Source of the DNA: an uncultured Gammaproteobacteria bacterium
GTDB taxonomy: Bacteria > Patescibacteriota > Microgenomatia > Woykebacterales > RBG-16-39-9b
Length of the DNA: 64,000 nucleotides
Direction of reading: 5' to 3'
Assembly (NCBI GenBank): GCA_965231125.1
Contig: OZ246414.1
Location: 281,512 to 345,511, forward strand
A model generated the notes under the pieces. It saw nothing but the letters and a program-made list of their open reading frames with translations. It made no database searches and was not told the DNA's origin. The position numbers were made by a program, and so were the translations under genes. Within the stretch, counting starts at the first letter, position 1; each line of letters starts with the position of its first letter. Of the stretch, positions 30,096-62,742 are shown in pieces.

Positions 30096-30941
30096 GTGGT
30101 TATACGGACACCCCAAACTCTAATAGATCTGAGAGTCTTGGACCTGGTAGGCCCACCAATGGCAGGGCTTCCTGAAGAGGTGCTTAAGCATCATCTCAGG
30201 AATCTCGAGCCGATTCATTGGGCGATCGGAGAAGTCGCCAGAAGTATGAGACTGGGTGAAGTCGATCGCCAGCAACTCAGAATGGTCCTCCAAGGGATCA
30301 GACTGCCGGCTCCGACGATAGTTATCCCCGAAGCACAGCTTCCCGCAAACGACCCGCTCCGGCAAGTGTTCCCGACCGGCGGTTGGTACATGAAGTGCCC
30401 GCCCGGAATCGATCTGGTTCTGCTCCACCAGAGCGTCGGCCAGTTCGGGGCAGATGTGCGTTTCTACCGGCAGAACGATTCGGATCCGTGGTTTCTTAAG
30501 AGCTACGGAGAATGGTCGCCAGAGGGTAAGGGAAGTGAAGTGCAGCGGCTCACCACCCACTCGTGCCACCTCTTCATCCCAGACCCTTCGCAGTGGCTGT
30601 TCCCAGACAGCAAGGGCCTGCGTCGTGACGATTGCCTGCAGATGCAGCGCGAGTTCGAGAAGAAGTTGCCAGACGGTCGGACTTGTCCGGAACCGTCACT
30701 GGAGACTTTGGCTCTCGCGGCTTTCGAGTACCATCGGCAGCATCCGAGCCAGTGGCCACTTCGTGGCCCTAACTACGCCCGTTGCGCCAATCGCTTCGGC
30801 CGGGGTGGCTGGCTCGACGGTGGTGGCTTCGATCCGCGCGGTTTCGGCGTCAGCGGCTGGGGCGGGCTCGGCGGTGGCAATCTCGGTGCCTTGCGCTGGG
30901 TAGTGTGGTACGACGAAGAGGAGGCAGAGCAGGCCGCCTAG
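30096..30941 (+). CDS. DGR target (variable) protein; the C-terminal region carries the VR
   Basis: GTG start. Markedly GC-rich compared with the flanks. Its last ~40 codons (…GWLDGGGFDPRGFGVSGWGGLGGGNLGALRWVVW…) align to the TR with adenine-specific differences. Confidence 0.7.
   Translation: MVIRTPQTLIDLRVLDLVGPPMAGLPEEVLKHHLRNLEPIHWAIGEVARSMRLGEVDRQQLRMVLQGIRLPAPTIVIPEAQLPANDPLRQVFPTGGWYMKCPPGIDLVLLHQSVGQFGADVRFYRQNDSDPWFLKSYGEWSPEGKGSEVQRLTTHSCHLFIPDPSQWLFPDSKGLRRDDCLQMQREFEKKLPDGRTCPEPSLETLALAAFEYHRQHPSQWPLRGPNYARCANRFGRGGWLDGGGFDPRGFGVSGWGGLGGGNLGALRWVVWYDEEEAEQAA
30791..30906 (+). repeat. DGR variable region (VR)
   Basis: 116 bp, gapless alignment to the TR at 31759-31874 with 22 mismatches, all at TR adenines. 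The 3' 29 bp (CAATCTCGGTGCCTTGCGCTGGGTAGTGT) is identical and GC-rich, resembling an initiation-of-mutagenic-homing (IMH) element. Confidence 0.85.
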
Positions 30942-31016
30942 CTCTCGGACCTGGAAAACTTGGACCTTCTGGAATCTTGGTCCTTGGTTCCTTCGCCCGC
31001 AGAAAAAGATTCCAAC

Positions 31017-31066
31017 CCGACCCCGTTTCTCAAACACGTTGCGAGAAACGGGGTCTTTCTTTTCTC
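31017..31066 (+). terminator. Strong bidirectional hairpin terminator
   Basis: 13-bp perfect stem GACCCCGTTTCTC / GAGAAACGGGGTC followed by TTTCTTTTCTCTC. It lies between the convergent target and GIY-YIG genes. Confidence 0.55.
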
Positions 31067-31069
31067 TCG

Positions 31070-31366
31070 TTATTCTGGCTTGTCCAGAATCTGTCCGTAC
31101 AAATCTTTGAAATTAGGATTAAACTTCTTTATCATCTTAATCTTATCTATTCGGTTCATGTCCTTAATTTGTTTCTCTCTGATGATTGCTTGGTTAATAT
31201 TGGTAAGAATTTCAAAGTAAACTAGTTTGTACAGGTTGTATTTTGCAGTGAAACCTTTTGCAACATGGTTTTTGTGTTGCCAAACACGTTTTACTAAATT
31301 ACTAGTTACACCTGTATAAAGTGTTGGTCTATCATTGGCCATTATGTAAATATAACCAGGGTTCAT
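31070..31366 (-). CDS. GIY-YIG nuclease family protein
   Basis: Begins GYIYIM...LYTGVTSNLVKRVWQHK. A short free-standing URI domain sitting inside the DGR cassette. Confidence 0.75.
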   Translation of the reverse strand: MNPGYIYIMANDRPTLYTGVTSNLVKRVWQHKNHVAKGFTAKYNLYKLVYFEILTNINQAIIREKQIKDMNRIDKIKMIKKFNPNFKDLYGQILDKPE

Positions 31367-31512
31367 CCGGCTAATTATAAAAGATTCTGGATGCGTTCTG
31401 TGAGACAGAACTTACCAGAATGACTTGCGATGAAAAAACGTCACTCTGGCTTGACCAGAGTCTTTTTGAGAAAGATTCTCCGAGTCAGTAACACTTTTCC
31501 ATAATGACAAAG

Positions 31513-31521
31513 TGGTATAAT
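31513..31521 (+). promoter_or_regulatory. Candidate extended -10 promoter (TGgTATAAT) that could drive the TR transcript
   Basis: About 240 nt upstream of the TR on the TR strand, with no clear -35. Confidence 0.25.
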
Positions 31522-31758
31522 TCTCGTGGAGACAAGTTTAAGTATCAGCGGTCAAGGCTTCTGGTCGCTTTTCTCTCTACAATCTCCTTTAGTCCGGAAC
31601 TCTAAACGACTAAGGTCATTAGAGGTGTGATAAAGATTGCTAGACACTCCTTGCCTTTTCCTAGATCCCCCTACGCTAAAAGCTGCGGTGGGACGATAAA
31701 ATTCAATCCCTAGAAGTTTTCAAAGGATGGTGGGTGCTAGAAGGGAAAGGGCAACATT

Positions 31759-31874
31759 TCGCTACGGCCAGAGTAACTGGCTCAACGGTGGTAACTTCGA
31801 TCCGAACGGTTTCAACGTCAACAACTGGGACGAGAACGGCAATGACAATCTCGGTGCCTTGCGCTGGGTAGTGT
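31759..31874 (+). repeat. DGR template region (TR)
   Basis: Adenine-rich (28 A in 116 bp, many as AAC codons). 22 of those A positions are substituted in the VR. The ORF-track entry at 31727-31927 is an artefact of the TR. Confidence 0.85.
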
Positions 31875-31891
31875 CTAGAGGAAAAAGACGT

Positions 31892-32275
31892 CTAGGTGGT
31901 TTTGGCTTGTTTGATCCAGCCACCTAGCATCTTACCGATCTCTATTAAGAGATTCTCAAAAGAGAGATATTTTTGTTGATTGATTGCTCTAGTCTCAAAG
32001 GAGAGGCGCAATAGTATTTTTAAAACGTCCAGTTTGGCTGAGGCTCTTTCCAGGTAAACAAGTTTTTCGTTTTTACTCTTATAGCCTGCAAGTAGAACCA
32101 ATTCGAGAATTTCTAGGTTTAGGTCTGCACATTTTTGACCTACAGTGTAGCGATCTTGCCGAGGAAAATGTTTGAGAGCTTCGTGAAGGTTTTTATAAAA
32201 ATCGTAGGTCTTCTGAAATATGGGAATATCTAAATTACTTGAGTGGGGGGGGTCGAGTTGAAAACCTTTACTCAT
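31892..32275 (-). CDS. avd: DGR accessory variability determinant (Avd-like four-helix-bundle protein)
   Basis: 127 aa with the helix-pair pattern typical of four-helix-bundle proteins. Lies between the TR and the RT, on the opposite strand. Confidence 0.7.
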   Translation of the reverse strand: MSKGFQLDPPHSSNLDIPIFQKTYDFYKNLHEALKHFPRQDRYTVGQKCADLNLEILELVLLAGYKSKNEKLVYLERASAKLDVLKILLRLSFETRAINQQKYLSFENLLIEIGKMLGGWIKQAKTT

Positions 32276-33382
32276 CTTAGCTTTCTTAAGCGCCGAGCGC
32301 GTAGCGATCTATACAAGAAGGTTATCTCACTTCCCAATCTTTTTCAAGCTTGGGATGAGTTTAAGAAGGGGAAAAGAAAAAAGATTGATGTTGGAGAATT
32401 TGAGAGACATCTGGAAGACAATATTTTTGAACTGCGTCGGGAGTTGTTGACTAAAACCTACCGACACTCCTCTTACACCGGTTTTTACATTACCGATCCC
32501 AAAGTCCGCCATATCCACAAAGCGATTGTTCGCGACCGAATTGTTCACCACGCCCTATTCAAAGTTCTCAATCCCATCTTTGAACCTACTTTCATTTCTG
32601 ATTCTTTCTCTTGCCGAAAGGGATATGGAACTCATAAAGGATTTAAGAAGTTGGTTGTCTATGCCCGAAAAGTTAGCAAGAATTACACCCAAGATGGTTG
32701 GGCTTTAAAATGCGATGTAAAAAAGTTTTTTGACAGTGTTAATCATAAAGTTTTGCTAGAAATAATTAAAAGAAAGATTAAAGAAAAAGATCTGCTCTGG
32801 TTACTGGAAGAAATAGTTGGAAGTTTCTGCACTTGTCATTCTGAGGTAAAACCGAAGAATCTGAGATCCTTCGCTAATGCTCAGGATGACGATTATTGTA
32901 AAGGTATTCCCATTGGGAATCTGACTAGCCAACTCTTCGCCAACGTTTATCTTAATGAGCTAGACCAGTTTGTCAAAAACGAATTAAAGGCTAGATACTA
33001 TATCCGCTACGCTGATGATCTCCTTATCTTAATCGAAAACACAAAGGGTTTAGTCCAATATACTGGTATATTGGACAAGTTTCTTGAGGACAGGTTAAAA
33101 TTGGAACTGCATCCAAACAAAATTTCCTTGAGGAAACTGCCTTGGGGAGTCGATTTTGTTGGTTATATCGCTTTACCACATTATCAAGTTTTGAGAACCA
33201 AGACTAAAAGAAGAATTTATCGAAAGATTCGAGAAAGGATTTTTAGTTACAATGCAAAAAACATTAACTACGAATCCTTAAACCAATCCATCCAGTCTTA
33301 CTTGGGGATTTTGAAGCACGCTAATACACATAAGTTAGAACAGAATTTAAGAAATCAAATATATTTTTGGTTAACGGCTTAA
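32243..33382 (+). CDS. DGR reverse transcriptase
   Basis: RT motifs including the DGR-specific IGNLTSQLFANVYL (SQ in place of QG) and the YADD box (YIRYADDLLIL). About 375 aa with no maturase or endonuclease domain. The start is GTG 32243 or TTG 32258. Confidence 0.85.
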   Translation: MGGVELKTFTHLSFLKRRARSDLYKKVISLPNLFQAWDEFKKGKRKKIDVGEFERHLEDNIFELRRELLTKTYRHSSYTGFYITDPKVRHIHKAIVRDRIVHHALFKVLNPIFEPTFISDSFSCRKGYGTHKGFKKLVVYARKVSKNYTQDGWALKCDVKKFFDSVNHKVLLEIIKRKIKEKDLLWLLEEIVGSFCTCHSEVKPKNLRSFANAQDDDYCKGIPIGNLTSQLFANVYLNELDQFVKNELKARYYIRYADDLLILIENTKGLVQYTGILDKFLEDRLKLELHPNKISLRKLPWGVDFVGYIALPHYQVLRTKTKRRIYRKIRERIFSYNAKNINYESLNQSIQSYLGILKHANTHKLEQNLRNQIYFWLTA

Positions 33383-62595: not shown

Positions 62596-62742
62596 AGGTC
62601 AAAGGAATACGGGTGAAGCACGGTGTAAATCCGTGGGAGTGCCGCTACTGTAAACCCAGAACCCCGCCTTTGAATCCCTTCGAGCAAAGGAGGTGAAAAA
62701 TCACTTAGGATTTAAACCAGCCAACTTTGCGGCTGGTTTTTT
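62596..62742 (+). ncRNA. Cobalamin riboswitch-like leader (assigned from memory, not verified) with a terminator expression platform
   Basis: GGTGAAGCACGGTGTAAATCCGTG...GCCGCTACTGTAAACC resembles the cobalamin-riboswitch core as I recall it. It is followed by the hairpin CCAGCC..GGCTGG plus T6 (62717-62742), directly upstream of the DUF4430 gene. Confidence 0.5.

Follow-up and report, generated by a model that had tools for sequence, protein, structure and literature searches.

A diversity-generating retroelement of the Candidate Phyla Radiation with a GIY-YIG passenger and a possible poly-G switch

In the diversity-generating retroelement (DGR) of BPP-1, whose order is mtd-avd-TR-Sp-brt, the RNA of the template repeat (TR) has structured flanks that are functionally required, 20 nt of avd on the 5' side and a 140-nt spacer (Sp) on the 3' side (Handa et al., PMC7826257). 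Another order, Architecture B3, is TR-(avd)-RT, in which avd lies on the reverse strand; according to the passages of Wu et al. 2018 (PMC5758913) cited here, it accounts for 90% of the set of DGRs from the Candidate Phyla Radiation (CPR), and open reading frames (ORFs) nested between the target gene and the core are regarded as non-accessory because they are not conserved. Structured RNAs, the RT-n motifs, have been described near reverse transcriptase (RT) genes; only RT-10 was assigned to a DGR, and a DGR role for further RT-n motifs was offered as speculation (Weinberg et al. 2017, PMC5737381). The DGR considered here lies in a 64,000-nt stretch of contig OZ246414.1 (positions 281,512 to 345,511; assembly GCA_965231125.1) from an uncultured bacterium that GTDB places in the Patescibacteriota. 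This whole stretch is called the window, and its coordinates are used throughout. The complete element spans 30096-33382, contains every feature that an earlier, sequence-only reading of the window had named, and is very probably a standard CPR-type B3 DGR that carries a selfish insertion, a small GIY-YIG gene bounded by hairpins.

Layout of the element and its relatives

The element opens with the target ORF (30096-30941, + strand), which encodes 281 aa and ends in the variable repeat (VR; 30791-30906, +), the sole VR in the window; the target stop codon follows 35 nt after the VR end. A repeat comparison with VR places TR at 31759-31874 (+). The two repeats align without a gap over 116 bp with 22 mismatches, and all 22 fall on TR adenines, of which there are 28; the chance of this is about (28/116)^22 = 3e-14. 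At all 88 non-adenine positions VR and TR agree. The final 29 nt of VR (30878-30906) are identical to TR, with three unmutated adenines, and resemble an initiation of mutagenic homing segment.

Beyond TR lies avd (31892-32275, - strand; 127 aa), which converges on the TR RNA and both diverges from and overlaps the RT gene. Its product matches NCBIfam DivGenRetAVD NF033474 (92.9 bits, cut-off 80) and PF22296 bAvd (72 bits, cut-off 40), so that the minus-strand avd of the sequence-only reading is confirmed by coordinates and family matches alike. The TR end given there, 31876, needs a small correction, as the homology stops at 31874; TR does adjoin the 3' end of avd, with 17 nt between its last position and the avd stop codon (31892-31894). 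Public gene calls skip avd here, and an exact-match look-up of the 127-aa protein returned no record. A 66-aa plus-strand ORF (31727-31927), which is simply TR translated in the frame of VR, is annotated as a gene in two of the assemblies compared (L110 and L112), where avd is uncalled.

The RT gene (32258-33382, +) encodes 374 aa from a TTG at 32258, within an ORF that opens at a GTG at 32243. The TTG is the likely start because a public gene call has the same 374 aa and because relatives contain AGGAGG or AGGGGG 6 nt upstream of the equivalent TTG. With this start, the avd ATG (32273-32275) and the RT start overlap by 18 nt on opposite strands. The protein matches RVT_1 (E = 1e-20), and its motif reads IPIGNLTSQ; RTs of the DGR clade have (I/L)GxxxSQ in motif 4. 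Homologues at E <= 1e-60 number 6827 among 8000 candidates scored, and the RT gene adjoins avd in every examined homologue locus that has upstream DNA. A scan of viral contigs with the RT gave no match, PADLOC found no defence-system match for the GIY-YIG, Avd or target proteins, and a σ70 scan found no convincing promoter for avd or RT within the coding sequence of the partner gene. The RT N-terminus has about 11 residues more than most relatives (LSFLKRRARSD; 32276-32310), a segment shared by the homologue P0123; the DNA that encodes it is GC-rich, partly palindromic and directly upstream of the avd ATG on the opposite strand.

Relatives were collected by RT similarity in GTDB genomes (18 loci at 48-65% identity, all from CPR-type metagenome-assembled genomes) and by exact-protein look-ups, which added seven lineages, for a total of about 24 related DGR lineages. 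All of the related DGRs that were fetched share the layout of the window: avd is on the minus strand and head-to-head with RT in 17 of the 17 RT-related loci with upstream DNA, and again throughout L113-L132. In 14 of 15 loci the gap between the avd and RT start codons is between -18 and +23 nt; three loci have the two codons directly adjoined as CATATG, three have 2 nt between them, and in five, one of which is the window, they overlap. In one lineage, represented by ten assemblies (L113-L122), TR is invariant, and VR, present in five of the assemblies, differs from sample to sample almost only at TR-adenine positions. Since the VRs of this lineage diversify at TR-adenine sites while TR stays constant, the B3 layout is functional in nature. 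The window has the B3 order (TR, avd on the reverse strand, RT), and the label "non-canonical" proposed from the sequence alone does not apply, because TR-(avd)-RT is the published norm for CPR DGRs. The DGR closest to that of the window (L131/L132) is inserted in a ribosomal protein cluster, L10 / target-TR-avd-RT / L1-L11-NusG; another lineage (L124/L125) has two targets and adjoins TraG/VirD4-like and relaxase-like genes.

What sets the window apart is the interval between VR and TR. It measures 968 bp, as against 420-560 bp in relatives, and contains a GIY-YIG ORF (31070-31366, -) that is missing from this interval in all of the approximately 24 related lineages, the active one included. 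Three hairpins, all on the minus strand, accompany the ORF. The first copy of hairpin B (CGTTATTCTGGCTTGTCCAGAATCT; 31068-31092) overlaps the last codons and the stop of the ORF and marks one boundary of the cassette. Hairpin A (GTCATTCTGGTAAG...GCATCCAGAATC on the gene strand; 31382-31423) immediately precedes the GIY-YIG start codon. The second copy of hairpin B (31439-31463) is identical to the first at 21 of 25 positions. As direct repeats, the two copies of motif B bound a unit of 371 bp. In L131, whose RT is 67% identical, the sequence aligns with the window on both sides of this unit; a single 25-nt motif-B hairpin is found there, matched by the second copy in the window, and there is no gene. 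The cassette is thus polymorphic at a defined site, as genes of I-TevI-like homing endonucleases are: the window carries it and L131 lacks it. A 371-bp cassette, consisting of the gene and its hairpins, would have entered the spacer that separates the terminator of the target from the promoter of the TR leader, at a 25-nt hairpin already present there. Because the insertion falls between these two, every component of the DGR is intact. The target terminator is a perfect 13-bp inverted repeat with T-runs on both strands (31019-31055), likely to act bidirectionally for the target (+) and the GIY-YIG gene (-). The original observation itself is consequently of little weight, the opposite-strand avd being a CPR norm and the GIY-YIG gene a hitch-hiker.

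The target protein matches no Pfam or NCBIfam family. Only seven homologues were found, among them the target of the closest related DGR, L131/L132 (P0245), and the AlphaFold model (mean predicted local distance difference test score 46.6) is too poor for use. The gene stands out in composition, at 60% GC and with a third-position GC content (GC3) of 0.67, in a genome of about 42% GC and beside genes with GC3 of 0.35-0.39; the targets of L004, L014, L016 and L018 are likewise GC-rich. Adenine depletion was ruled out as the cause, since T as well as A is scarce at codon position 3. Just past the target stop codon, a CTTGG-rich segment (30948-30990) is conserved with L131, L123 and L126 and includes a small inverted repeat, GGACC...GGTCC (30962-30983); by analogy with other DGRs, it may be a target-recognition hairpin.

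The template RNA and its leader

An extended -10 sequence, TGGTATAAT, is present at 31513-31521 (+). The sequence-only reading had suggested that the TR transcript starts at this box, in the gap ahead of TR, and the comparison bears this out in that the box aligns with conserved -10-like boxes in relatives; it is the likely promoter of an RNA that contains a leader and TR. Downstream of the box, an alignment of 14 loci reveals a conserved element of about 235-240 nt that ends at TR. In the window this leader (31527-31758, +) is predicted to be structured. The RNAalifold consensus has 48 pairs in seven helices, with compensatory changes in 38 pairs; 90.6% of the cells are paired, compared with 40-47% when the partners are slid by 1-3 columns, and none of 500 column shuffles reaches the observed pairing values. 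An nhmmer profile of the leader finds one match per DGR locus, including lineages outside the alignment, and each match ends at the TR start; the same profile has no match in about 490 kb of GIY-YIG loci.

The 3' domain of the leader (about 31576-31760) resembles the Rfam motif RT-16 (RF03019). The scores are 22 bits for the window, 37 for L131 and 32.7 for L126, all below the gathering score of 50, but the three matches are full-length and each abuts the TR start. At gathering thresholds, Rfam models match nothing in the DGR region of the window or of 13 relatives. Elsewhere in these loci, two of the 13 relatives have a LOOT RNA (RF03000) a few kb away from their DGR (L008, 12668-12793; L016, 8601-8722). 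An AdoCbl-II riboswitch is present at 62599-62673 of the window (39.3 bits, above the gathering score), and no tRNA genes were found in the 64 kb.

A second structural feature connects the leader with the far end of TR. Its 5' strand, CTAGACACT (31640-31648, +), pairs with AGTGTCTAG (31870-31878, +), which covers the final 5 nt of TR and the 4 nt that follow. This long-range helix is present in the minimum free energy fold of the window RNA, where it stacks on helix 5 (31651-31662 with 31743-31754); TR thus forms a loop between two neighbouring helices. Covariation from locus to locus supports the pairing, which was found again in independent loci. Cognate duplexes have a mean energy of -13.2 kcal/mol, as against -8.3 kcal/mol for non-cognate ones, and none of 20000 permutations reaches the cognate mean.

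A conserved 3' "Sp-like" structure in antisense avd was also considered and was dropped, since the consensus fold of TR plus antisense avd contains no conserved pairs. The wobble-pattern conservation in this region arises because it encodes the Avd C-terminus, EIGKMLGGW. In several relatives, a hairpin that resembles a terminator separates TR from the avd stop codon; therefore, the functional RNA can end before avd. The following sequence of events can be proposed. An RNA of about 350 nt (roughly 31528-31880) would be transcribed from the extended -10 at 31513-31521 and would fold so that TR is looped out between helix 5 and the long-range helix. This RNA need not overlap avd, and the two transcription units would converge 13 nt apart. 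RT would be translated from the TTG at 32258, with a run of G residues in the Shine-Dalgarno position, and Avd would be made from the opposite strand. RT and Avd would then bind the RNA and copy TR into adenine-mutagenized cDNA, which would replace VR in the target. If so, RT-16, until now an Rfam motif with no specific role, gains a likely one as the 5' platform of the TR RNA in CPR-type DGRs; the template is enclosed by a helix that covaries, and a minimal RNA (about 31528-31880) is defined.

A G-tract at the avd/RT overlap

The G-run is a homopolymer of eight (G8; 32245-32252) that falls in avd codons 8-10 (D-P-P-H) on the minus strand and precedes the RT TTG by 5 nt on the plus strand. It is the sole G/C run of at least 7 in 64 kb, where composition predicts about 0.35 runs of G8 or longer, and it occupies the position at which relatives have an AGGAGG Shine-Dalgarno sequence. 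Two assemblies identical to the window also have G8. In L110, which represents the same organism but was assembled independently from a metagenome, the tract is G9, and Avd ends prematurely after 13 residues. Over 6.3 kb, L110 differs from the window by six single-nucleotide polymorphisms (SNPs) and by only two indels, both of which are in DGR genes: the additional G in avd and a T5 to T4 change at 33240 that frameshifts the RT C-terminus. In the closest relative, the tract is G16 in L131 and G10 in L132; this difference keeps the same frame, and there is no other indel in the DGR. Tracts of G9-G11 occupy the same site in L124/L125, L126, L127-129, L006 and L010, such that tracts of 8-16 G recur there in at least seven lineages. 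The contig of L002 ends at the tract; the adjacent sequence is identical to that of L124/L125, and the DGR is apparently the same. Within L127-129 and within L124/L125, tract length does not differ. In each complete relative with a tract, the canonical avd ATG is out of frame with an avd body that is still open; in relatives that have no tract (L123, L130/L001), avd is in frame.

Other simple repeats are found in these cassettes. Across 18 loci, 14 repeats are present in 24.5 kb of avd-RT cassettes versus 4 in 155 kb of flanks, an enrichment of 22-fold (binomial p about 1e-9); other CPR loci have a background of 0.047 repeats per kb. A (GT)n repeat is present at the avd/RT junction in L003, L011, L013 and L015, with up to 27 units in L013. 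L005, L007, L009, L014 and L016 have repeats inside or at the end of RT, where (GA)n encodes RERERE or, in L014 and L016, frameshifts RT. In several further RT homologues, G-runs or GT repeats lie within the sequence that encodes the N-terminus. Directly after RT in L113-L122, a (GGTT)n array varies from 8 to 23 copies among the assemblies.

Variation of the tract across assemblies and lineages suggests, at the level of sequence, that Avd is phase-variable, and the G8 run in the overlap may act as a slippage-dependent on/off switch. The Shine-Dalgarno position of RT would have grown into poly-G (G8-G16), which on the opposite strand specifies proline codons at the start of avd. Slippage in the tract would shift Avd in or out of frame and leave the RT start unchanged, and only part of the population would then have targeted hypermutation switched ON. 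The (GT)n repeats at the junction, the (GA)n repeats in RT and the (GGTT)n array downstream would be variants of the same contingency logic. We put forward only tentatively, as something a little short of an even chance, the combined proposal that the avd/RT overlap is a genetic switch operated by a hypermutable poly-G tract and that the leader is a docking and priming platform for RT and Avd. To our knowledge, the regulation of DGR mutagenesis is poorly understood; the tract, if it works in this way, would provide stochastic ON/OFF control of a hypermutation system.

A simpler account is that the G-run is just the Shine-Dalgarno sequence of RT and that the differences in length are sequencing or assembly errors in homopolymers. 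The run does align with the AGGAGG or AGGGGG that lies 6 nt upstream of the RT start in tract-less relatives. Homopolymers are error-prone, contigs L002 and L125 end at or beside the tract, and all three assemblies of one lineage have G9. However, 9-16 G is more than a Shine-Dalgarno element needs, and the recurrence of tracts of 8-16 G at one site in at least seven lineages and the 22-fold enrichment of simple repeats in avd-RT cassettes speak against this account. Similarly, the only two indels that separate L110 from the window in 6.3 kb both fall in avd or RT, and the sole indel between the DGRs of L131 and L132 is a difference of exactly 6 G. On balance, the simpler account is possible but less likely than not.

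Several observations weigh against the reading of the window as a standard, working DGR with a passenger. The promoter, the RNA ends, the priming site and current activity are all deduced from sequence. The spectrum of VR changes is unusual, with 18 of 22 being A to G (two are to C and two to T); changes at TR adenines across the clade comprise 150 to G, 59 to T and 47 to C. VR is identical in all four assemblies of the organism, including L110, and because window and L110 share the same VR, there is no sign of ongoing diversification in this element. GIY-YIG and RT genes occasionally co-occur (L018, L054). Finally, RT contains a palindrome-derived insertion of 19 aa. The palindrome (GTCATTCTGAG...CTCAGGATGAC; 32835-32890, +) is 56 nt long and adds CHSEVKPKNLRSFANAQDD in frame to the loop between the D(V/I)KKFFDS and IGNLTSQ motifs; L110 has the palindrome as well.

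Some of these points would also fit a DGR that is decaying or silent, in which the overlap, the G-run and the RT palindrome are damage and not design. VR is the same in two populations that are 6 SNPs apart, one of which (L110) is frameshifted in both avd (G9) and RT (T5 to T4 at 33240); RT bears a foreign insertion, and the avd ATG is out of frame in most G-tract-bearing relatives. Nonetheless, decay is improbable. The target, avd and RT ORFs are all intact in the window, and the agreement of VR and TR at 88 of 88 non-adenine positions argues for recent homing. Past the tracts, the avd bodies are free of stop codons in every "OFF" relative, which fits reversible switching better than pseudogenization. 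The RT loop in which the palindrome resides is short in the closest relatives, but tolerates other insertions in further relatives that are intact.

The GIY-YIG gene, and comparison with known systems

The GIY-YIG ORF encodes a 98-aa, UPF0213/YhbQ-like protein that matches PF01541 (E = 2e-12) over residues 4-72. Its homologues are 90-107 aa long and number 881 in the database; the best 120 of the 881 are 65-83% identical to it. A search of the PDB with the single sequence gave no match, but two UPF0213 structures, 1ZG2 (E = 5e-4) and 1YWL (E = 4e-3), were matched by a profile built from 24 homologues. A second, DNA-binding domain was looked for in the 98-aa protein and is not present. It consists of a bare catalytic domain of the UPF0213 family, unlike I-TevI-type homing endonucleases, in which the GIY-YIG domain is joined to a separate DNA-binding domain; the classical homing endonuclease that the sequence-only reading had considered is not supported.

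Genes of this family typically reside in housekeeping surroundings. The usual neighbours are secF, recR and yqeY (for example, secF|GIY|yqeY and recR|GIY|yqeY). Homologues at 70-77% identity are found in such contexts flanked by the same hairpins as in the window. Motif B (GATTCTGGACAAGCCAGAATGAC) encodes the final residues and the stop codon of the protein. Together with motif A it flanks GIY-YIG homologues in unrelated contexts, and both motifs also occur solo (L019, L022, L030-L038, L089). In L089, palindromes of the class seen in RT at 32835-32890 cluster around a GIY-YIG gene. The GIY-YIG gene of the window is thus a mobile passenger with no part in the DGR. The passenger role allowed for by the sequence-only reading stands, since the gene is absent in relatives and none of 91 GIY-YIG homologue loci contains avd. 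Its other suggestion, an accessory factor, is refuted because related genomes carry the same DGR and lack the gene; the comparison of related CPR DGRs proposed at the same time was run, and it revealed no conserved GIY-YIG linkage between VR and TR.

GIY-YIG domains accompany RTs in eukaryotic Penelope-like elements. From this, from the location of the gene physically inside the DGR cassette, and from two loci in which the domain is near an RT gene (a weak match 300 nt downstream of RT in L018, and an RT about 950 nt from the gene in L054, the only one of the 91 loci with RT), it could be argued that the protein is a DGR accessory that, for example, nicks target DNA near VR for integration of the cDNA. 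This is hardly credible, given the gene's absence from the VR-TR interval of related lineages, the lack of avd at its homologues' loci, the close homologues that bear the same hairpins in housekeeping contexts, cassette boundaries that are direct repeats of a hairpin found solo in the closest relative, and the judgement, in the cited passages of Wu et al. (PMC5758913), that nested ORFs of this sort are non-accessory.

Compared with the characterized members of UPF0213 (1ZG2, BH0048; 1YWL, EF2693), the protein likewise has about 100 aa, a single GIY-YIG domain and conserved Y, G, R and E positions. The match is distant, however, and the CPR subfamily differs in being flanked by hairpins, one of which encodes the C-terminus. 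In systems of repetitive extragenic palindromes (REPs) and their associated tyrosine transposases (RAYTs), REP palindromes flank the gene for a Y1 transposase. The GIY-YIG cassette is similar in that a small, nuclease-type gene is bracketed by palindromes that are also found solo; by analogy, the palindromes and the gene may constitute a REP-like system. Here, though, the enzyme belongs to the GIY-YIG and not the HUH/Y1 class, and there are only four arms in 64 kb. Searches of the literature for GIY-YIG with REP, COG2827 or YhbQ returned nothing relevant. Within this limited literature, the existence of very well conserved CPR GIY-YIG genes tied to specific palindromes, one of which lies in an RT gene, appears to be undescribed.

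The tract in avd resembles those of genes that are phase-variable through simple sequence repeats (SSRs) in Campylobacter, Neisseria and Haemophilus. In both cases, poly-G/C of at least 8 is present in the 5' coding region, the tract length differs between close relatives, and both frames are seen with an intact downstream ORF. Unlike the SSR contingency genes, avd belongs to a CPR host and encodes a mutagenesis factor rather than a surface structure, and its tract is also in the Shine-Dalgarno position of the divergent RT gene. A literature search on DGRs with homopolymer tracts or phase variation returned nothing relevant.

Among DGRs, the window shares with the B3 elements the order and orientation of TR, avd and RT, the single upstream target with a C-terminal VR, the CPR host and an unrelated ORF nested between target and core (the "X" class), and its layout shows no difference from theirs. 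The passages of Wu et al. cited here (PMC5758913) mention neither the start-codon overlap and the G-tract nor the structured leader, the long-range helix and the identity of a nested ORF as a GIY-YIG cassette. The leader shares with RT-16 the AUAAAAUnCA ... GGUG core and the long helix that encloses it, but differs in having the long-range helix and an extra domain of about 100 nt on its 5' side. With BPP-1, the window shares the adenine-specific pattern of VR and TR, the presence of Avd and RT, and a TR inside a structured RNA. In BPP-1, however, all of the genes are on one strand and Sp (Rfam RT-10), which binds Avd and primes, is 3' of TR. Here the opposite-strand avd takes the position of Sp, the conserved structure is 5' of TR, and 3' of TR only a 9-nt strand pairs back to the leader. 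By analogy, the RT-16-like leader and the long-range helix may replace the 3' Sp of BPP-1 as the platform on which RT and Avd dock and priming takes place.

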